Source: a virus (taxonomy: Duplodnaviria; Heunggongvirae; Uroviricota; Caudoviricetes). From it: 8,279 bases of DNA. Made by a program: the position numbers and the translations under genes. The notes below the pieces were generated by a model, which was not told the DNA's origin, did no database searches, and worked only from the letters and a program-made list of their open reading frames with translations. The stretch is from positions 1 to 8,279 of IMG/VR virus record IMGVR_UViG_2548876852_000004. One strand, 5' to 3'. The number at the start of each line of letters is the position of its first letter. Positions within the stretch are counted from its first letter, which is position 1. Positions 455-7,941 of the stretch are shown here, in pieces.

Positions 455-610
455 TTACTCCTCAGGTTCGTAAGCTGTGAAGACAGCGACCTCCGTCTGG
501 CCGGTTCGGATTCGTACCTCGCAGAGGTCTTTCCTCGTTACCAGTGCCGTCACTATGACGGTTAAACAGATGACGATCAGGGCGATTAACATCGCCTTTT
601 GCTGCTTCAT
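455..610 (-). CDS. hokD: Hok/Gef-family type I toxin (51 aa, single transmembrane helix)
   Basis: Translation MKQQKAMLIALIVICLTVIVTALVTRKDLCEVRIRTGQTEVAVFTAYEPEE matches the Hok/Gef family and, as I recall it, HokD (RelF) in particular. ATG at 608-610 is preceded by AGGAG with 8-nt spacing; stop TAA at 455-457. The tracked ORF 455..649 begins at an upstream TTG with no SD. Family call is firm; the paralog name is from memory, and the K-12 relBE neighbours are absent here. Confidence 0.8.
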   Translation of the reverse strand: MKQQKAMLIALIVICLTVIVTALVTRKDLCEVRIRTGQTEVAVFTAYEPEE

Positions 611-624
611 AACCTGCTTCTCCT

Positions 625-1830
625 GTGTAAGTTCACAGAGATATTGCAATTGCCTCCGGATAAGTAAGGGGAGATTGCACTATGCAAATGCAGCATCTGA
701 TGGTTGGCTATCCTAAGTACTACCAAACGGCCGATTATGCGTTGAGGCTTTCAGTGATGGCTGATATAGCAACAATGAGAATGAAGGCTCTGCACTTCTG
801 GGATAAACACGGTATTTCTGCAGCTTCTGAAGCCTTTGGCGTGTCCTGCCGCACGCTTTACTGGTGGCGTCAGTTACTGAACAAGGAAGGACCTGAGGGG
901 CTAATCCCGCACAGTAAGGCACCTCTGGTGCGACGAAAAAAACACTGGCATCCCGATGTGCTGAAAGAGATTCGACGCCTCAGGACAGAGCTGCCGAACC
1001 TCGGTAAAGAGCAGATTTTTGTTCGCCTGAAGCCCTGGTGCGAACAGCGCTATCTGGCCTGTCCGAGTGTTTCCACCATCGGCAGAATGATCGCTGCCGC
1101 ACATGATAAAATGCGGATGATACCTGTGCGTCTGGGATCGCGGGGGAAGGCACTGCTTGTCAAAAAGCGGTCTGCCAAACCCCGCAGGCCAAAGCACTAC
1201 CGCCCGGTAAAGACAGGTGAGCTCATTGGGATGGACGCCATTGAGCTCAGAATGGGCGAACTGCGTCGCTATGTCATCACCATGATCGACGAATGCAGCA
1301 ATTACGCGCTGGCGCTGGCTGTGCCGTCACTCAACAGTGATATCGTCAATCACTTCTTCAGCCGCGCAGCCCGGTTGTTCCCGGTCGGTATCAGCCAGAT
1401 AATCACAGATAACGGAAAAGAGTTCCTGGGAAACTTCGACAAAACGCTGCAGGAAGCCGCTATCAAACACCTCTGGACCTATCCCTACACGCCAAAAATG
1501 AACGCTATCTGTGAACGTTTTAACCGGACGTTAAGAGAGCAGTTTATTGAATTTAATGAGATTTTACTCTTTGAAGATCTGGCGCTATTTAACCAGAAGC
1601 TGGCGGAATATCTGGTGCTGTATAACAGCAAAAGACCCCACAAGGCGCTCGCACTAATGACGCCCGTGGAATATATTTTAAAAGAGAATAAAAATTGCAA
1701 TATGTGGTGGACCCATACATCTCCTTGCCTTTCGGCGCGTAAGAGGCTAACCTACGTTTGTGAAGCATAGATTGGGCCTCAGATTAATGTTAAGCGTCTT
1801 GCAGGACGCGTAATGTTAACTGGGGCTTTT
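625..1830 (+). mobile_element. putative insertion sequence carrying the DDE transposase; boundaries not resolved
   Basis: Single transposase ORF wedged between hok and phage genes. Terminal inverted repeats could not be identified confidently by eye: only a shared TTCACA/TGTGAA motif near 633-638 and 1759-1764. The extent given is approximate. Confidence 0.3.
682..1770 (+). CDS. DDE transposase with N-terminal HTH and rve integrase core (IS481-family-like)
   Basis: 362-aa ORF. N-terminal HTH-like segment (ALHFWDKHGISAASEAFGVSCRTLYWWRQ). Catalytic triad candidates D (GMDAIE), D (ITDNGKEF) and E (NAICERFNRTLREQ), with about 35 residues between the second D and E, followed by KRPHKAL. SD AAGGGGAG sits 8 nt upstream of ATG 682. 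Confidence 0.8.
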   Translation: MQMQHLMVGYPKYYQTADYALRLSVMADIATMRMKALHFWDKHGISAASEAFGVSCRTLYWWRQLLNKEGPEGLIPHSKAPLVRRKKHWHPDVLKEIRRLRTELPNLGKEQIFVRLKPWCEQRYLACPSVSTIGRMIAAAHDKMRMIPVRLGSRGKALLVKKRSAKPRRPKHYRPVKTGELIGMDAIELRMGELRRYVITMIDECSNYALALAVPSLNSDIVNHFFSRAARLFPVGISQIITDNGKEFLGNFDKTLQEAAIKHLWTYPYTPKMNAICERFNRTLREQFIEFNEILLFEDLALFNQKLAEYLVLYNSKRPHKALALMTPVEYILKENKNCNMWWTHTSPCLSARKRLTYVCEA

Positions 1831-1954
1831 CTCTGTCTGCCTTACGGTGGCATGCCCGAGGCAGACAGCCTCAAGCACCCGCAGCAATTCTACTTAACTC
1901 TCGCTTTACAGCAAACCGTTTTGCCCGATATGGGAATTCCCATACGGAATGAAT

Positions 1955-2059
1955 TCAGTTCCCCAGGCGCTCCATCAAAAACACAACCAGGCAGTAAACA
2001 CCCACAACAGCAATAACAGCCAGAGCGCCTTCCATTACCAGTGAAATATCATCCGACAT
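1955..2059 (-). CDS. candidate small hydrophobic peptide (34 aa, one predicted TM helix)
   Basis: Not in the ORF track (below its length cutoff). ATG at 2057-2059 is preceded by a strong SD AAGGGAGGG (spacer about 3-4 nt). Translation MSDDISLVMEGALAVIAVVGVYCLVVFLMERLGN has acidic/charged ends and a hydrophobic core. Stop TGA at 1955-1957. An AT-rich possible promoter lies at 2060-2168. Confidence 0.3.
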   Translation of the reverse strand: MSDDISLVMEGALAVIAVVGVYCLVVFLMERLGN

Positions 2060-2168
2060 ATTCCCTCCCTTGGTGTGAATCCCGGCGAACGTTTTTACCC
2101 CCACCGACAAATAACATATACTAGAAAAGCAATAGCTATAGCAACGCCTGCAAATGCATCTGGCCGGC

Positions 2169-2732
2169 TCATTGGTTCTCCCCCTGTGTCGCTTCTACTG
2201 CGATCTGACTGGCGTATTCGTTAATGGTAACGATAAGTTCTTGCTCGGCCTCATCCAGACAACTACCGATACCTCGCCTGTCCACTTCAGAAGCATCGAA
2301 ATCTGCACGAAGCCTGGCGACCTTCAGGATTGCGGACAACACCTCATCAGGGATTGCCGGAGAGTTGGTTGACGTTTCCGAGATTATCCGAAAATTATTG
2401 GTTGACGAACCCTTATTTTCCCGAAAGTTTCCAGCCTGAAGCATGGCGGCGCGGTGACACCAGATAATCCAGCCAAGCGCCATATCCCATGCCATGTATT
2501 CTCTATCGCCATTTTTTGCTCTGCGGCGATCTACAGATTCCCCGAAACGCTTCTCCATAAATAATTCATAGGCTGCCCGTTCATCCGATACTGATGCCAG
2601 TGATGCCAGTGCAATTTTTAATGCGGTAAGCATGTTGTTTTGATCTTCATCGAGTCCGAACGGTATTTCATCCCGTGATGACTCAATTCCGGTAATCGTG
2701 TACTGTAGCCATTCTTTGGTTAATTCAGTCAT
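2169..2732 (-). CDS. hypothetical protein (187 aa), orphan gene with its own upstream region
   Basis: ATG at 2730-2732, stop at 2169-2171. A 126-bp AT-rich gap (2733-2858) separates it from the upstream gene. No recognisable domain motif by eye. Confidence 0.6.
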   Translation of the reverse strand: MTELTKEWLQYTITGIESSRDEIPFGLDEDQNNMLTALKIALASLASVSDERAAYELFMEKRFGESVDRRRAKNGDREYMAWDMALGWIIWCHRAAMLQAGNFRENKGSSTNNFRIISETSTNSPAIPDEVLSAILKVARLRADFDASEVDRRGIGSCLDEAEQELIVTINEYASQIAVEATQGENQ

Positions 2733-2766
2733 TTTTCACTACCGCCCTTTCGGGCGGTCTCCTGAT
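2733..2766 (-). promoter_or_regulatory. 5' UTR stem-loop placed between the SD and the start codon of the 187-aa gene
   Basis: Minus-strand RNA reads ...CAGGAG-ACCGCCC-GAAA-GGGCGGU-AGUGAAAA-AUG. The stem is a perfect 7 bp (plus coords 2741-2747 / 2752-2758) with a GAAA tetraloop. The SD AGGAG (2759-2763) is 26 nt from AUG in linear sequence but about 8 nt if the hairpin folds. No U-tract follows on either strand, so it is not a terminator. Confidence 0.45.
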
Positions 2767-2858
2767 GTTCTGAGGGTGCAGGAATCCCTCCGGTTAAGGA
2801 TTTAATAAAAATCATTTCTGATTTAAATTTTCAGTGTTTAGTTGTTGGTTTATAGCCT

Positions 2859-3170
2859 TTATGCTTCGGCCTTATTTCTCAGCCATACACAAACAGGACC
2901 ATCTTCGGTGTCATGTATCGAACCGATAAACCATCCCTCACCTTCTGGTCGCTCAGGTTCCCATGCTGAAATATCAGGGCCATCTGCGTCCAGATTAAAA
3001 TCATCTTCATCCATACTACGGATAGCCCACTGAAGATTATTTTTCTCCATCCAGGCGTTAAACTCTTCCGTTGAAATATATTCCCGACCATCACAGAATT
3101 TTTCATATTCAGGATGCGTCCAGCAGCCATATTCATTACGTTCCACTGGCATTTCTTTAATTGCGCTCAT
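2859..3170 (-). CDS. hypothetical phage protein (103 aa, acidic)
   Basis: ATG at 3168-3170 is preceded by a G-rich SD (GGGGGGG) and directly follows the upstream gene stop (TAAATG). Part of a run of tightly packed minus-strand genes. Confidence 0.6.
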   Translation of the reverse strand: MSAIKEMPVERNEYGCWTHPEYEKFCDGREYISTEEFNAWMEKNNLQWAIRSMDEDDFNLDADGPDISAWEPERPEGEGWFIGSIHDTEDGPVCVWLRNKAEA

Positions 3171-3356
3171 TTACCCCCCCTTATTTAATTTTCTACGACA
3201 CTTTTTACAATCATCTGGACTTTCGAATGTATCCGGCTCACGCTCATTGCCAAAATACATCCACCCACCGCAAGTACTTGTTATTTCACCTTCAGCAAAA
3301 TAATGATGCTTTTTCGCCATAAGTGGCCTTGCCCAGCCCGGATTCGTTTTACTCAC
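3171..3356 (-). CDS. small Cys-containing protein (61 aa), possible zinc-ribbon-like
   Basis: GTG start at 3354-3356 is preceded by a strong SD AAGGAGG (spacer 6). GTGA overlap with the upstream gene stop. Cys residues at TSTCGG and CKKC. Confidence 0.55.
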   Translation of the reverse strand: MSKTNPGWARPLMAKKHHYFAEGEITSTCGGWMYFGNEREPDTFESPDDCKKCRRKLNKGG

Positions 3357-3709
3357 TTGTTGCCTCCTTTGCGAAGCTCTGCGACTAACTCGTCACATAT
3401 GTGCGTCAAAGAGCAAAGTTTGATTGCTGGATGTTCGCGCACCATCTCCACACCCTGCGCCCGCAATTCTGCCAGAAAAGCGTAGGGGTCAGTTTTTTCA
3501 CTGTGGTACATGGCATCATAGATAATCATTGCAGCGACACCTGCCTGTCCTGCATCTGTGACGGATATATGCTCAAGGGCTACGGCCATTGCGTGTTTCA
3601 ACCTCTCATTTTCCACCTCAAGCACCACACGATTAGCCTCCAGCTCTTCTATGCGTTTTTTTGCTGCTCCCAGCTCAACACGCAGCTCCTGATAGTTAAT
3701 CTCGCTCAT
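3353..3709 (-). CDS. hypothetical phage protein (118 aa) with N-terminal coiled-coil-like segment
   Basis: ATG at 3707-3709 is preceded by GGGAGGAAGGAGA. ATGA overlap with the upstream 74-aa ORF stop. N-terminal heptad-like region ELRVELGAAKKRIEELEANRVVLEVENERLK. Confidence 0.6.
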   Translation of the reverse strand: MSEINYQELRVELGAAKKRIEELEANRVVLEVENERLKHAMAVALEHISVTDAGQAGVAAMIIYDAMYHSEKTDPYAFLAELRAQGVEMVREHPAIKLCSLTHICDELVAELRKGGNK

Positions 3710-3930
3710 TCTCCTTCCTCCCGCACTGCTGTTTTATATGCCCGAAGCACATGCGATGTTTTTCCTGACACAGTGCTTCTCAGAAAGAAAATTCCACTGG
3801 TGTTTATTACCAGATACGGGTCAGCAAGACGCAGCATATCCAGTATGTGATTATGTTTTCTTGTTTCCAGCACCGTACTGGAAATAAGCATATGTGACAC
3901 GGGGCCGAAATCATGATATCTGATTTTCAT
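3706..3930 (-). CDS. hypothetical protein (74 aa)
   Basis: ATG at 3928-3930 has a modest SD (AGGGTG). Its stop overlaps the next start (ATGA), indicating translational coupling within the operon. Confidence 0.5.
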   Translation of the reverse strand: MKIRYHDFGPVSHMLISSTVLETRKHNHILDMLRLADPYLVINTSGIFFLRSTVSGKTSHVLRAYKTAVREEGE

Positions 3931-3951
3931 ATCATCACCCTGCTGTAAAAA

Positions 3952-4707
3952 TTACCCGTTATCTCCTGTCGTTATTTTCTGTATGACATCACGATGCTTA
4001 TTAATTTCCCGCAGCGCGGCGCATAAGCGCTCCCACTTCTGAACCTGACCTTTTGCCCGGCGCAGCTCGCGGTTAGCCACATGCAGCGATGGTAAAATCA
4101 GACCATCCGGATGCTTTCTGATGAACGACGACTGTGACTGCACTGTGACCGCCACACTTTCAGTTTTAATTTCTTCCTGTGTTTCCGCTTCCCGGACTGG
4201 TAACGCAGCACCTGCTGGCTGAGGAAAGGCCTTACCATCATTTTTCGTTACCGGCGCGGCTTTCGGATCTGCTGGTAAATTCCCCCCCGACATGCAGTAA
4301 CGAAATTTACCGTTCTGATTAACGCGTGCCAGCCGCCCCGTTGCGGTTACCACCGCCAGCGTGGAAGCAACCTTGCGAGTACTGACGCCGAACTTACCCG
4401 CCAGTTCCTCACACGTTTTAGCACCATCCTGACCGATAAACTCAACCATCATGTCTGCGGTAACTTTTGGAGCGACCTCTTCGGTTACCACATCCGGCGC
4501 TTCAGGTTGTAGTGCCTGCCCTTCGGTTACCCCGGCTTCACCTTCGACAGCCAGAAACCAGGTGTGACCCGTTTTATCAACAACGCCATTTTTTTTGAGT
4601 TCCCACAGTTCGTTAAGAACTTCTTCACGGCTGATATCAAGCCGCGCCGCCAGTTCAACAGAATTGGCTTTTCCCATCGCTTTCAGTGCATGCAATACAG
4701 TTTCCAT
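3952..4707 (-). CDS. hypothetical phage protein (251 aa) with two winged-helix-like segments separated by Pro/Ala/Glu-rich linkers
   Basis: ATG at 4705-4707 is preceded by SD GAGGT (spacer about 9). Two HTH-like segments: N-terminal (SVELAARLDISREEVLNELWELKKNGVV) and central (KTCEELAGKFGVSTRKVASTLAVVTATGRL). Sits immediately downstream of the replication genes. Confidence 0.65.
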   Translation of the reverse strand: METVLHALKAMGKANSVELAARLDISREEVLNELWELKKNGVVDKTGHTWFLAVEGEAGVTEGQALQPEAPDVVTEEVAPKVTADMMVEFIGQDGAKTCEELAGKFGVSTRKVASTLAVVTATGRLARVNQNGKFRYCMSGGNLPADPKAAPVTKNDGKAFPQPAGAALPVREAETQEEIKTESVAVTVQSQSSFIRKHPDGLILPSLHVANRELRRAKGQVQKWERLCAALREINKHRDVIQKITTGDNG

Positions 4708-4732
4708 CGAAAATTTACCTCGTCAAAAATTC

Positions 4733-5464
4733 TCACATACCCTGACGTCCAACGTTTGACCGCCAGCTCTCCCAGTTAAAATTCACCCAACGACCACCAT
4801 TCATGGTCATACGGTCCATCACCCGATCTCCGAGGAGTGTGCTCATCGCTGCGTGATTCAGGTTCGTCAGCATTCCGACACTACGCATCGAAGCCGTTCT
4901 GCGGTCGACTATCTGGTTCAGCGTGACCTGCTCGTTGCGCGTATCCCGCTGCATGCCAATTTCATCAAGGACCAGAAGGTCAACTCCACAAAGCTCCTGT
5001 AAAAATTTTTCCCCGGACTGGCCGTTGTCGTAGCCGTCATGCAACACGCTCATGACATCGGACACGGTGACGATAATCACGCTTCTCCCCTTCGCCATCA
5101 GCCGATTGCCAATCGCTGCTGCCAGGTGATTTTTACCGGTACCAGGTTTACCGCTGAACACGAAGTTTGTACATCCGGTCATCAATTCATCGGCAATGGA
5201 TTTCGCCTGGCTCAGAGCATGGCGCTGACCGTCGTTCTGCACCCGGTAGTTCCCGAATGAGCACTTCCTGTGAAGCGGCTGGATGCCCGCACGGTTCAGG
5301 ATTTTTTCAACCCGCACCTGATGATTCAGGCGGTTAATCTCCTCGCTGCGTTTTCGTCCTTCAGCAAGTTGCCATTCCCGCCACTCCTCCACCGTCCGGT
5401 ACGGTGGAACCGCCCCCCTGTGGTGCAAGTCTGCGAATACGTTCAAGAACCCCAACTGCCGCAA
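4733..5464 (-). CDS. DnaC-like replicative helicase loader (AAA+ ATPase, IstB/DnaC family)
   Basis: Walker A GKPGTGKNHLAAAIG and Walker B LLVLDEIG. N-terminal region aligns with the DnaC N-terminus as I recall it (IQPLHRKCSFGNYRV...GQRHALSQAK). First in-frame start is TTG at 5462-5464 with no strong SD, so the exact start is uncertain. Confidence 0.85.
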   Translation of the reverse strand: MRQLGFLNVFADLHHRGAVPPYRTVEEWREWQLAEGRKRSEEINRLNHQVRVEKILNRAGIQPLHRKCSFGNYRVQNDGQRHALSQAKSIADELMTGCTNFVFSGKPGTGKNHLAAAIGNRLMAKGRSVIIVTVSDVMSVLHDGYDNGQSGEKFLQELCGVDLLVLDEIGMQRDTRNEQVTLNQIVDRRTASMRSVGMLTNLNHAAMSTLLGDRVMDRMTMNGGRWVNFNWESWRSNVGRQGM

Positions 5465-5480
5465 TGTTTTTCATGACACG

Positions 5481-6443
5481 TCACCCCCTGAATCCCGGCG
5501 GTATTTCAGTGTCCGGTTCAGAAATGTGATTCACGCAACGCTGCGCGGGCGAACGCCCCAGGCGGATAACCAGTTCATCCCATTTTTCCCGGAGTTTTGC
5601 CGGACTCATGATGTTTTTTACCCAGAACGAATCCCGCTGGAGACGCCCAAACATTTCACAAATTTGTCTGTGAGTTCTGCCATCCAGCATCCGCATTGTC
5701 CGCACGTCATTGGCCCATGCAGTCCAGTTGGGTTCTTTCGGTCTCGTGATCTCGCCATCATCGCTGGCCGCCTGCTCGTAAAGACTCACGATTCGTCCCC
5801 AGATCCACTGTGCGCACACCAAATCTTCCTGACTTCCCCACTGGCGTTTTTTCGCACTGAACACAACCGCGTCAGGGTGTCGGGTTAAAAAATCCTGTTC
5901 AGCCGTCTGCGGGTCCGGTTGCGAAGCGTCCGGACAAGAAGATCTTTTATCTGACGGATCAGGTTTTAATACTGACGGATCGGGGTCAATCATCGCCCCC
6001 CTAATCGGCAGTTTGTTATCAACAGTTGATCCATCAAAATTTGACGGGTCAACCGTTGAGGGGGCAATATTTGACGGGTCAACTGTTAACGGGTCATTTT
6101 TTGCCGGGCTAATTTTTCTTTTCGGTTTATATGACTCACGCGCCGCTGCCGCAGCTGCTTCGAGTTTTTCCACATTAAGCCGATAGATATTGCTTACATT
6201 ACGCCCACCGACCTTACGCTCTTCCTTCGTCAGCCAGCCCTCTTTCGCCAGTTCTGCAATAGCCGATTTCACTGTGGATTCACTTCTTGCACCGATCTGA
6301 CGCCGGATAGTTTCAATGGCAGGCCATGACACGCCCTCGTCATTGCTGTAGTCTGCAAGACGGGCCATAACCGCCACCCTGGATAAGATCATGCCGGTGA
6401 AGGCGCACCCTTCCCAGACAAGACCATGAAGCTTGCTGCTCAT
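5481..6443 (-). CDS. lambda O-like replication initiator
   Basis: C-terminal domain matches the lambda O C-terminus as I recall it (WANDVRTMRMLDGRTHRQICEMFGRLQRDSFWVKNIMSPAKLREKWDEL vs lambda WANDIRLMRERDGRNHRDMCVLFRWACQDNFWSGNVLSPAKLRDKWTQL). N-terminal HTH region and a repeat-containing linker. ATG at 6441-6443 is preceded by GGGGG; the tracked ORF starts at an upstream GTG (6458). Confidence 0.85.
   Translation of the reverse strand: MSSKLHGLVWEGCAFTGMILSRVAVMARLADYSNDEGVSWPAIETIRRQIGARSESTVKSAIAELAKEGWLTKEERKVGGRNVSNIYRLNVEKLEAAAAAARESYKPKRKISPAKNDPLTVDPSNIAPSTVDPSNFDGSTVDNKLPIRGAMIDPDPSVLKPDPSDKRSSCPDASQPDPQTAEQDFLTRHPDAVVFSAKKRQWGSQEDLVCAQWIWGRIVSLYEQAASDDGEITRPKEPNWTAWANDVRTMRMLDGRTHRQICEMFGRLQRDSFWVKNIMSPAKLREKWDELVIRLGRSPAQRCVNHISEPDTEIPPGFRG
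6017..6133. repeat. putative phage replication origin inside the O-like gene: three 11-bp palindromic iterons at 30-bp spacing plus an AT-rich tract
   Basis: TCAACAGTTGA (6019-6029), TCAACCGTTGA (6049-6059) and TCAACTGTTAA (6079-6089), the last two each preceded by TTGACGGG, followed by the AT-rich stretch 6094-6133. On the coding strand they encode repeated TVDPSN peptides, matching lambda's ori-within-O arrangement. Confidence 0.55.
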
Positions 6444-6465
6444 AAAACCCCCGAACACCGTGCTT

Positions 6466-6891
6466 TTAGTGCATCACCACAGCATTCCCTGCCGGGCCGC
6501 CGCGATTCATCTGGTCATACAAAACAACCGCTGACGCAACAAAATCATCGACATCCTTCACCAGCCGATCCCTCCGTTCGACGATCTCACGGTAATATTC
6601 AGAACTGTGGCTGCGCATACGGGCCACCAGCAAAGGCGGCATCGCCTTTTCGATCGCCGGTAACAGAGCCTGCATTTTTTCAACAGCATCAGGGGTGTCT
6701 TTATCCAGCCAACGGAAAATTTTCTGGGTATTACGGGCCAGGGCTTCCGGATGGCTGTCGTCATACAGTTCCGGGAACGTCATTCCCAGCTCGAAATACG
6801 CTTTGGTAATTTTCGCAGCCGGTACTTTTTCGCCGTCCGGATGCGCCCAGACATTCATCGCCATGCGGATGTGTTCATGCTTGATTTTCAT
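6466..6891 (-). CDS. YdaT-like (CII-position) early regulatory protein
   Basis: 140-aa ORF sitting between the Cro-like gene and the O-like gene, the position held by YdaT in Rac-type prophages. ATG at 6889-6891 is preceded by SD GGAG (spacer 8). It overlaps the Cro-like stop by 17 nt. Family assignment is from memory and position. Confidence 0.55.
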   Translation of the reverse strand: MKIKHEHIRMAMNVWAHPDGEKVPAAKITKAYFELGMTFPELYDDSHPEALARNTQKIFRWLDKDTPDAVEKMQALLPAIEKAMPPLLVARMRSHSSEYYREIVERRDRLVKDVDDFVASAVVLYDQMNRGGPAGNAVVMH

Positions 6892-7156
6892 GAATCAAGC
6901 TCCTAGAAAGTGGTTGTGTTAACGTTTTGGTATCTTCCAGCTCGGGCCAAATATTCATCCAATCAAAAGGCCTTAGTTGCTGACGTGTAACTTCACCATT
7001 ACTGGCTCGCTCAATAAGGACACATAACGATGCCCCTAACACTTGACCTTTACTCAATGCCTTTCTTAGATAACCGATGCTGGTACCACACTCGCATGCA
7101 AACATACGCTGTTCATCTGACGAAAGAGAATTGAGAAATATTCTTAATTCTTCCAT
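6875..7156 (-). CDS. Cro-like HTH regulator (YdaS-like)
   Basis: 93-aa ORF divergent from the repressor. HTH-like segment CGTSIGYLRKALSKGQVLGASLCVLIERASNGEV. Consensus SD AAGGAG sits 5 nt upstream of ATG 7154-7156. Confidence 0.7.
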   Translation of the reverse strand: MEELRIFLNSLSSDEQRMFACECGTSIGYLRKALSKGQVLGASLCVLIERASNGEVTRQQLRPFDWMNIWPELEDTKTLTQPLSRSLIHENQA

Positions 7157-7181
7157 AGCTACTCCTTAGTAAACACAGCAA

Positions 7182-7250
7182 AGAATACCCACAGGTAAAT
7201 AAAAGTCAATACCCACAGGTTGTTTACCTTGCGGTAATCGCATCTATTAT
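7182..7250. promoter_or_regulatory. OR-like divergent promoter/operator region
   Basis: Two copies of ATACCCACAGGT(A/T) at 7185-7198 and 7209-7222, 24 bp apart. Candidate rightward-early promoter on the minus strand: -35 TTGACT (7204-7209), 16-nt spacer, -10 TATTCT (7182-7187). Candidate repressor promoter on the plus strand: -35 TTTACC (7223-7228), -10 TATTAT (7245-7250). The repressor ATG at 7257 has no SD and lies about 7 nt past the -10, suggesting a leaderless mRNA. Confidence 0.55.
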
Positions 7251-7256
7251 TTACCT

Positions 7257-7676
7257 ATGGACAAATATGAATTTAGACGACAGCAACTCATCAAAATTCG
7301 TGATGAGAAATGCGATGGTAAAGCGGTTAACGTGGCCAGAAAGATCGGGCGCGAGCCTTCTTATGTATCAAGAATGTTGTACCCAGAGGGGAAAAAGGGA
7401 AAAAAACGGATCGCTGATGATATGGTGGAGATTATCGAAGAGTCCTTTGGGTTACCCCGGGGATGGATGGATGGTATCGTTTCATCATCAACGAACACAG
7501 CCTCCAGTTATGAAACAAGGGTTCTAACGCCACGACAACGTATTTTTTTAGATCTCTTAGACGAACTGCCAGAAAGTGAAGCGGATAAATTATTAAAAAC
7601 TCTTGAAGAGAAAAAACAGTATTACAATATGATCTACGAAGAAATCCGTAAAAAGAAAGCACAAAACGCATCATAG
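7257..7676 (+). CDS. CI-like prophage repressor, short form without a peptidase domain (RacR/DicA-type)
   Basis: 139-aa ORF with N-terminal HTH (AVNVARKIGREPSYVSRMLYPEGKK). C-terminal LDELPESEADKLL resembles the DicA C-terminus as I recall it. Divergent from the Cro-like gene and flanked on both sides by the same operator motif. Confidence 0.7.
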   Translation: MDKYEFRRQQLIKIRDEKCDGKAVNVARKIGREPSYVSRMLYPEGKKGKKRIADDMVEIIEESFGLPRGWMDGIVSSSTNTASSYETRVLTPRQRIFLDLLDELPESEADKLLKTLEEKKQYYNMIYEEIRKKKAQNAS

Positions 7677-7718
7677 CTCACCAAACAACTAGTCACCAGT
7701 TAAGACACTGCAAAAAAG

Positions 7719-7760
7719 TTACCCATGGGTATTTACTTTTTAAATACCTATGGGTATTCT
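7719..7760 (+). promoter_or_regulatory. OL-like operator pair overlapping a leftward-early-type promoter
   Basis: TTACCCATGGGTAT (7719-7732, core TACCCATGGGTA is a perfect palindrome) and ATACCTATGGGTAT (7744-7757). Overlapping promoter candidate: -35 TTTACT (7732-7737), 17-nt spacer, -10 TATTCT (7755-7760). Same motif as the OR-like sites. Confidence 0.55.
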
Positions 7761-7941
7761 TCTTTTCATACCAACCCACCCCGCCCCACAGAATGCAGGG
7801 CAATACTTTGAGTTACCAGGCAGTGGTCAGGGGTTAAGTAGCCAGCCCGAGGCGTATGAACATGACGGCGGGAACACTTTGTATAACAGCGCAGCAGGTT
7901 TTTAGTTCCGCGACCCGGCGTTAAGGGTAAATGAGGTCAAC

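Follow-up and report, generated by a model that had tools for sequence, protein, structure and literature searches.

What kind of gene occupies positions 2169-2732 of this prophage, and is it expressed on its own? The gene encodes 187 amino acids on the minus strand and is set apart from the gene upstream of it by a 126-nt gap. The first-pass annotation had described it as an orphan with the layout of a moron, expressed independently from the lysogen and possibly forming a two-gene accessory module with a small hydrophobic peptide encoded nearby. The gene was analysed here in the context of the whole 8,279-nt stretch of DNA from the IMG/VR record IMGVR_UViG_2548876852_000004, referred to below as the window. 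We consider it probable (roughly 0.6) that it is a shuffled early accessory gene of lambdoid prophages, composed of three modules (A, B, and C) and lacking the DUF551 domain in which many of its relatives end.

Genomic setting

The window covers the early-right region of a lambdoid Escherichia coli prophage, with its immunity, replication, and nin parts, read on the minus strand. The following features were assigned.

7257-7676, plus strand: cI-like repressor gene
6875-7156, minus strand: cro-like gene
6466-6891, minus strand: YdaT/cII-position gene
5481-6458, minus strand: O-like replication gene with an HTH_36 domain
4733-5464, minus strand: DnaC/IstB-like ATPase gene
3952-4707, minus strand: DUF1627 gene
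3353-3709, minus strand: 118-aa gene with a weak Ead/Ea22 match (E = 0.004)
3171-3356, minus strand: 61-aa gene
2859-3170, minus strand: 103-aa gene, acidic product, phrog_1372; its 3' flank is the 126-nt junction
2733-2858, minus strand: 126-nt conserved and portable junction, with an AT-rich 5' half, a GC-rich 3' half, and a GAAA-tetraloop hairpin
2169-2732, minus strand: 187-aa coding sequence, ATG start, acidic (pI 4.6) mosaic accessory protein, identical to the "hypothetical protein" Sakai ECs_2756 (WP_000137957 type)
2095-2172, minus strand: 25-aa hydrophobic micro-ORF (MSRPDAFAGVAIAIAFLVYVICRWG), unannotated in the records examined; its ATG overlaps the TGA of the 187-aa gene (ATGA)
1955-2059, minus strand: ORF of a 34-aa single-TM peptide with the Shine-Dalgarno (SD) sequence GGGAGGG (WP_001278460 type)
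1714-1880, minus strand: sok antisense RNA and 5' region of the hok mRNA, directly downstream of the 34-aa ORF (RF01794, 111 bits, E = 2e-25)
455-610, minus strand: hok ORF (PF01848, E = 3e-23)

Downstream of the 187-aa gene, two micro-ORFs are thus followed by the sok RNA, then by an insertion sequence and finally by hok. Prophage Sp14 of the O157:H7 strain Sakai and a prophage of the O26:H11 strain 11368 exhibited 99% identity to the window over positions 1720-4326. In these loci, the 187-aa gene is annotated as the hypothetical protein ECs_2756 / WP_000137957.1 and the 34-aa ORF as ECs_2755 / WP_001278460.1. Both prophages lack the module of the window at 4326-7764 (the HTH_36 O-like gene, the DnaC/IstB-like ATPase gene, cI, and cro) and have a lambda-P-type module instead, so that the mosaic boundary is located at approximately 4326, within the DUF1627 gene. 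The 61-aa gene of the window is not a homologue of the 63-aa gene found ahead of DUF551 genes in other loci, and the 118-aa gene has only its first 10 residues in common with Ea22-like proteins. This comparison of synteny gave no support to the idea that the 103-aa gene is an inserted cassette. A literature search gave no mention of the locus tags ECs2756 and ECs2755 or of the protein accessions.

Identity and distribution of the 187-aa gene

The ORF at 2169-2732 proved to be a real gene with an ATG start, and an intact copy with 99.8-100% identity is present in 344 E. coli genomes, including O157:H7 Sakai (ECs_2756). Its GC content (~49%) is at the level of the window. A large protein search gave 4,319 homologues, counted as clusters at 90% identity, and an exhaustive HMMER search gave 1,034 when clustered at 50%. 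Matches to PHROG profile HMMs were also obtained, namely phrog_14306 (aa 93-181, E = 1.2e-34), phrog_660 (aa 48-98, E = 9.7e-18), and phrog_60 (E = 1e-6), each of which covers only one module of the protein and none of which has an assigned function. With relatives in these numbers, the gene is not an orphan. In the PDB, no match below E = 0.8 was found with either the single sequence or the profile. Fold searches with the protein were not informative.

The initial impression that the protein has no recognisable domain was borne out. The Pfam hmmscan gave no family at E ≤ 0.01, NCBIfam gave no domain, and the protein did not match Ead_Ea22 (PF13935). Nothing was found by Rfam (E ≤ 1) within the gene or in the gap at 2733-2858, and sok at 1714-1880 was its one solid match. 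A 5'-truncated copy of the gene, annotated as a pseudogene, was observed in E. coli 2013C-3492 (locus L003, 3230-3517). PGAP names this copy "DUF551 domain-containing protein" even though its sequence is devoid of DUF551, and the label is a name transfer from mosaic relatives.

Modular architecture and the mosaic family

The gene can be divided into three modules, a linker, and a tail.

2592-2732, minus strand: module A, aa 1-47, helical, ending in the junction motif KIALASLA (AF2 pLDDT 87-96)
2433-2591, minus strand: module B, aa 48-100, helical, ending in the near-invariant joint RAAMLQ (phrog_660; AF2 pLDDT 54-77)
2346-2432, minus strand: S/T/N-rich disordered linker, aa 101-129 (GNFRENKGSSTNNFRIISETSTNSPAIP)
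2193-2345, minus strand: module C, aa 130-180, acidic helical hairpin (phrog_14306)
2169-2192, minus strand: tail, the last 7 codons (ATQGENQ) and the stop codon, of the DUF551-gene type, with the SD of the micro-ORF (GGGGGAG) and the ATGA overlap

Module A shares 93% identity with the N-terminal ends of many DUF551 proteins, and module B is found at varied positions in other proteins. Among the best 120 of the 4,319 matches, aa 1-100 show approximately 90-93% identity to many DUF551 proteins. Relatives with 264-299 residues aligned with 97% of the query at 52-73% identity and then continued into an extra linker and DUF551. Modules B (about aa 38-100) and C (about aa 120-181) were matched independently of each other in the 1,034 clusters of the 50% level, where they are placed N-terminally, centrally, or C-terminally in proteins of 69-463 residues. 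When the Pfam content of 83 module-C cluster representatives was inspected, DUF551 was present in 23 and Ead_Ea22 in 5, while a dATP/dGTP pyrophosphohydrolase domain and Lar were each present in one; 60 of the 83 are without DUF551.

The joints conserved in the family are IALASL, RAAMLQ, and the GNFRENK…STNxP linker. The linker at aa 101-129 is the constant hinge where the family exchanges modules. The 187-aa protein has the modules and joints of the mosaic DUF551-associated family in common with its members, and its gene occupies the same genomic slot with a 3' tail coupled to the micro-ORF. Its relatives adjoin Ead/Ea22 genes and are found in both exo-xis and nin-like regions. The mosaic family is built as "beads on a string", with portable modules connected at conserved joints. 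For Ea22-type proteins, it has been reported that they are mosaic, that DUF551 is portable, and that domains can be split off into genes of their own (PMC10834534, PMC8614690). Two further variants, rearranged at the same joints, were observed in the family: an IMG/VR variant in which the linker unit NNFREISETSTN is duplicated in tandem, and a 266-aa variant in which a MazZ-like dATP/dGTP pyrophosphohydrolase domain has been swapped in.

The missing DUF551 domain and the retained tail

DUF551 (PF04448) is a domain of roughly 68 residues (…W(I/V)S…RMP…HWMPLPEPP) with no known function (PMC4776307, PMC10834534). The 187-aa protein was below the gathering score of this family, without a match, while its relatives do score for it (E = 1e-20). 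In the alignment with these relatives, the DUF551 domain is absent from the 187-aa protein and only the tail that follows the domain is kept. Specifically, the DNA alignment of module C with the full-length relatives ends at …GCAG(T/C)AGAA, where the relatives run on into the linker and DUF551. The tail of the 187-aa gene (ATQGENQ and stop) matches that of DUF551 genes (PPQEVRQ and stop) at 17 of 24 nucleotides. Going outward from this point, the identity to a DUF551 locus is 71% in the last 7 codons, 83% and then 96% in the micro-ORF, 97% in the spacer, and 94% in the 34-aa ORF. The sequence CAGAAC(C) is present at the joint in both parental contexts.

In the simplest history, the DUF551 core and the linker between the modules would have been lost through an in-frame deletion or illegitimate recombination at the CAGAA(C)C microhomology. 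The direction of this event, deletion as opposed to an ancestral short form, is read from the 17 matching bases out of 24 and the flanking homology. Retention of the tail is probably explained by the SD and the ATGA start that it contains for the 25-aa membrane micro-ORF, whose translation would be coupled to that of the gene. The SD within the tail was CAGGAGGTG, CAGGGGGAG, or CAGGGGGCG in 104 loci, 5 nt ahead of ATGA. The gene thus offers an example of rebuilding at conserved joints, with the tail apparently retained since it holds the ribosome-binding site of the next ORF. The DUF551-less tail was found on at least five N-terminal architectures (119, 129, 185, 187, and 250/277 aa) and the reading frame is open in all of them, which indicates that recombination has spread this end and that it is more than a single accidental lesion. 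A deletion that arose independently within DUF551 was observed in the relative P0238, where …SERMPDD is joined to RQEVNQ and stop.

These features raise the question of whether the gene is only a decaying remnant, that is, a DUF551-family gene that has lost its effector domain and drifts, being kept open just for its 3'-end coupling and the SD of the micro-ORF. The loss of the DUF551 core with retention of the SD and ATGA fits this explanation, as does the 5'-truncated pseudogene copy in 2013C-3492. The 187-aa protein also departs from the consensus of module C at five positions that are conserved in ≥90% of the sequences (F148S, D149E, G150V, D157S, and K172E). Five substitutions were counted within the DUF551-less lineage, four non-synonymous and one synonymous, and the resulting pN/pS of about 1, also in favour of drift, derives from only these five changes; between the 187-aa lineage and its DUF551-bearing relatives, pN/pS is about 0.5. 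Given the five changes at near-invariant residues, the 187-aa copy may be decaying. On the other hand, the ORF is intact in 344 genomes, its DUF551-less end remains open on the architectures listed above, and most module-C proteins are naturally without DUF551, so that the "loss" of this domain may not equal a loss of function.

Structure prediction also bears on this point. The AF2 model that was calculated with diverse representatives of the 50% clusters had a mean pLDDT of 77.2 and a pTM of 0.42, while an alignment of close homologues only gave a pLDDT of 52.7. Modules A and C were predicted as confident helical hairpins, module B was less confident, and aa 100-128 were disordered. The structure prediction suggested in the first-pass annotation yielded helical hairpins with a disordered linker, and the well-folded prediction for modules A and C speaks against decay. 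Overall, we regard a mere remnant as rather unlikely, and the protein without DUF551 may be a reduced or functionally drifting version within the shuffled accessory family.

The 126-nt spacer upstream of the gene

The gap at 2733-2858 was confirmed. The stop codon of the upstream gene is at 2859, and the gap is the sole large one in the minus-strand operon, where the other junctions from cro downward range from -17 to +25 nt. Its description as AT-rich applies to only part of it: the GC content is 27% in the first 70 nt and 57% in the last 56 nt, which form stable hairpins, and it is 40% over the whole gap as compared with 49% for the window. RNA folding of a 151-nt segment (2720-2870) gave -35.3 kcal/mol with a z-score of -3.4, and none of 200 shuffled sequences was as stable. 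The segment contains the perfect hairpin CCGCCC-GAAA-GGGCGG at 2742-2757. The only SD-like bases ahead of the ATG of the 187-aa gene (GGCGGT) are within the 3' arm of this hairpin. A weak SD held in such a stable hairpin suggests that translation of the gene would be low or conditional.

With a 201-nt probe spanning the gap, 1,612 matches were obtained, distributed over 851 E. coli genomes. Wherever a locus was inspected, the spacer followed a homologue of the 103-aa gene, and the gene after it was DUF7167, DUF4014, the Q antiterminator, or the 187-aa gene; in EPEC E2348/69, it is directly upstream of the Q antiterminator gene. The junction is ~90-95% conserved, and five aligned spacers were near-invariant through the hairpin, where a C-to-T change in one variant preserves the stem by a G-U pair. 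Beyond the hairpin the similarity soon stops, either right at the start codon of the downstream gene or no more than about 8 nt away from it. The occurrence of the same spacer after the 103-aa gene and before unrelated genes shows that it is a portable junction, which forms the 3' flank of the upstream cassette and travels with the 103-aa gene. Accordingly, the leader described in the first-pass annotation is structured, as claimed, but it is not the gene's own. Annotators should avoid reading this portable hairpin spacer as a gene-specific leader. The spacer could serve as a recombination linker, as a hairpin for RNA stability or processing, or as a Rho-dependent terminator ahead of Q, and may act as a terminator or processing site of the nin region.

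Several other candidates were considered for this segment. An intrinsic terminator at the hairpin was rejected because there is no U-run after it on either strand. A 28-aa uORF (ATGATTTTT…TGA) that overlaps the ATG of the 187-aa gene was rejected for lack of conservation; four of five related loci have ACG or GTG in place of its start codon, and its frame relative to the downstream gene varies. As for a REP-like repeat, there is no second copy of the hairpin in the window.

A simple consensus scan, which weak, activator-dependent, and alternative-sigma promoters may escape, detected no sigma-70-like promoter on the minus strand of the gap, and a consensus scan of 1700-4000 detected no terminator-like site. 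The only minus-strand promoter-like site near the gene is at 3226-3253 (TTGGCA-16-TACATT, 9/12), inside the 61-aa gene and upstream of the 103-aa gene. Promoter-like sites in the region numbered 7, a modest excess over the shuffled expectation of 3.5 ± 1.7.

A moron in this position would be an accessory gene transcribed independently, alone or with the 34-aa peptide, from a promoter in the gap while the prophage is repressed. The position of the gene after the sole large gap of the operon with its AT-rich 5' half, the structured leader, and the plausibility of accessory genes beside hok/sok as fitness factors are in line with this proposal. The outcome of the promoter and terminator scans is not, and the layout of a moron is therefore unsupported. 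Moreover, the gap belongs as a conserved 3' junction to the upstream gene and stands ahead of unrelated genes, Q among them. The gene does not differ from the window in GC content, and other phages have the same N-terminal module in tight coupling, as exemplified by the DUF551 gene of phage JLK-2012, which is only 2 nt from its upstream gene. We thus consider independent expression from the lysogen improbable. In the absence of a promoter and terminator of its own, the shuffled accessory gene is most likely transcribed with the delayed-early operon; transcription would proceed rightward through the pR/nin operon upon induction or infection, not from the lysogen.

Classical morons of lambdoid phages include lambda bor and lom. 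Like them, the 187-aa gene is dispensable and is embedded in an otherwise conserved phage operon. Unlike them, it has no detected promoter or terminator of its own, its composition is not deviant, and its spacer is common to other genes. The lead towards an orphan or moron is thereby removed, and the gene is seen as an everyday result of the module shuffling that goes on in the accessory regions of lambdoid prophages in pathogenic E. coli (O157:H7 and O26).

Relation to known proteins and predicted function

The closest known proteins are the DUF551 proteins of prophages, such as WP_000627694 (E. coli SJ7), gp05 (phage JLK-2012), and the "EaA protein" (phage 1720a-02); YfdS of CPS-53 consists of the DUF551 domain alone. 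Modules A and B and the linker of the 187-aa protein are 75-93% identical to those of the DUF551 proteins. The genes also share the slot directly upstream of the micro-ORF, the 34-aa ORF, and hok-sok, as well as the tail with the SD and ATGA. In contrast to the DUF551 proteins, the 187-aa protein has no DUF551 and its module C is joined straight to the tail.

A second comparison is with Ea22 of lambda and its variants in Stx phages. The mosaic, acidic, and oligomeric nature of Ea22 is documented, one Ea22 variant of a Stx phage ends in DUF551, and Ea22/L0065 of 933W represents domains split into genes (PMC10834534, PMC8614690). The likeness of the 187-aa protein to Ea22 lies in an early, non-essential, acidic protein with helical or coiled-coil structure, multiple modules, and swappable C-terminal domains. 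Further links are the relatives that adjoin Ead/Ea22 genes and the five module-C proteins with Ead_Ea22. However, the 187-aa protein has no Ead_Ea22 match, its gene is in the nin region and not in the exo-xis region, and the pro-lysogenic phenotype is that of Ea22. By these likenesses, the 187-aa protein may be called analogous to the Ea22 class and not a member of it.

The family as a whole would consist of very large numbers of recombination-shuffled, non-essential early accessory proteins of lambdoid phages and prophages, many of which end in DUF551. As to mechanism, the 187-aa protein could be a helical, acidic adaptor that oligomerises and, in early development, binds a partner from the host or the phage. 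By analogy with what has been proposed for Ea22 and exo-xis proteins, a non-enzymatic, protein-binding function is probable, although our confidence in this assignment is low. The function of the whole family, which counts thousands of proteins including those with DUF551, is a long-recognised gap.

The proteins of the region were also compared with defence systems. No family of PADLOC-DB (E ≤ 0.1) was matched by the 187-aa protein, by its 103-aa, 61-aa, 118-aa, and 74-aa neighbours, or by the 25-aa peptide, and the 34-aa peptide gave only a chance-level match to Cmr5 (E = 0.027). It is very doubtful that the 187-aa protein is an anti-defence or host-takeover protein made early in infection, for instance an acidic protein that decoys restriction or some other immunity factor of the host.

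Micro-ORFs and the hok/sok block

The 25-aa ORF at 2095-2172 had not been reported in the first-pass annotation. A 27-aa form (MIWPEAFAITGVAIAIDFLVYVICRWG), which differs from the 25-aa form by an in-frame 6-nt indel, follows DUF551 genes, and the ATGA-coupled micro-ORF in one form or the other was found in 104 loci. The small hydrophobic 34-aa ORF at 1955-2059, which had been noticed earlier, is real: its SD is strong, its few variants are conservative, and its pN/pS is about 0.07-0.2. The 34-aa ORF is under purifying selection. Of 5,426 complete E. coli genomes, 672 have it, as do about 100 prophage contigs of IMG/VR. Two conserved micro-ORFs beside hok/sok are therefore flagged here in some 670 complete E. 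coli genomes.

Neither peptide matched a Pfam family, including Hok/Gef and other small toxins. In a collection of isolated phages, the 34-aa peptide gave no match by tblastn, and blastn matched the hok side only; its exact pattern had no match among the GTDB species representatives. In the collections searched, the small-ORF block seems confined to resident prophages.

The neighbours of the 34-aa ORF were then compared in loci with enough flanking sequence. A member of the mosaic family is located upstream in 100 of 101 loci, and in the one remaining locus no ORF of ≥80 aa was recovered. These members have 110-418 residues and dozens of architectures. On the other side, sok/mok follows directly in 91 of 91 loci and hok in 90 of 91. 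Since the upstream body is variable and sok/hok is constant, the conserved unit is the tail, the micro-ORF, the 34-aa ORF, and hok/sok. Modules of the 187-aa protein are also found in exo-xis regions without the small peptides.

The proposed check on co-occurrence thus gave a divided answer: the 34-aa ORF does co-occur with a mosaic-family member upstream, but not specifically with the 187-aa gene. With dozens of upstream architectures and modules that also occur without the peptides, a two-gene module of the 187-aa protein and the 34-aa peptide finds no support, and their tie is best read as a positional linkage at the level of the family, not a specific partnership. What stands of the earlier description is a non-essential, swappable accessory gene that is physically linked to ORFs of small hydrophobic peptides.

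Very improbable is a broader partnership that would unite the mosaic protein with both coupled peptides (25 and 34 aa), and perhaps with hok/sok, in a single module for, as examples, exclusion, abortive infection, or lysis timing, with the cytoplasmic protein as sensor or regulator and the peptides as membrane effectors; the near-constant neighbours on both sides of the 34-aa ORF, the micro-ORF coupled in 104 loci, and the purifying selection on the 34-aa ORF are what such a module would predict, but the upstream body is freely exchanged with or without DUF551, family members are widespread without the peptides, no component matched PADLOC or Pfam, and a recombination boundary at the 3' tail of the gene can explain the linkage. 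If any mosaic protein, the ATGA-coupled 25/27-aa TM peptide, the 34-aa TM peptide, and sok/mok/hok did constitute one functional unit, which we hold to be just as improbable, translation of the variable cytoplasmic protein would gate the production of one or two unannotated micro-proteins of the membrane, which would modulate the Hok toxin or act together with it. Exclusion, abortive infection, and lysis timing would be possible settings, with the hypervariable protein as a diversifying sensor or decoy. Under the preferred reading of a shuffled accessory gene, the residual interest of the locus lies in the block of the micro-ORF, the 34-aa ORF, and hok/sok and in the portable hairpin junction.

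Two observations concern the distal part of the window. A sub-threshold Rfam match to isrK, the Hfq-binding sRNA of a Salmonella prophage, is located at 365-446 on the minus strand, just downstream of hok (27 bits versus a gathering score of 50, E = 0.01). An insertion sequence of ~1.1 kb occupies 625-1719; it contains an rve-type transposase ORF (682-1770) with a weak match to the IS481 leucine zipper and is flanked by a 6-bp target duplication (619-624 = 1720-1725). This element is missing from the otherwise identical loci of Sakai Sp14 and O26 11368. It sits 14 nt upstream of the hok start codon and splits hok from its promoter and the sok/mok region, and hokD is probably inactivated by it in this prophage.
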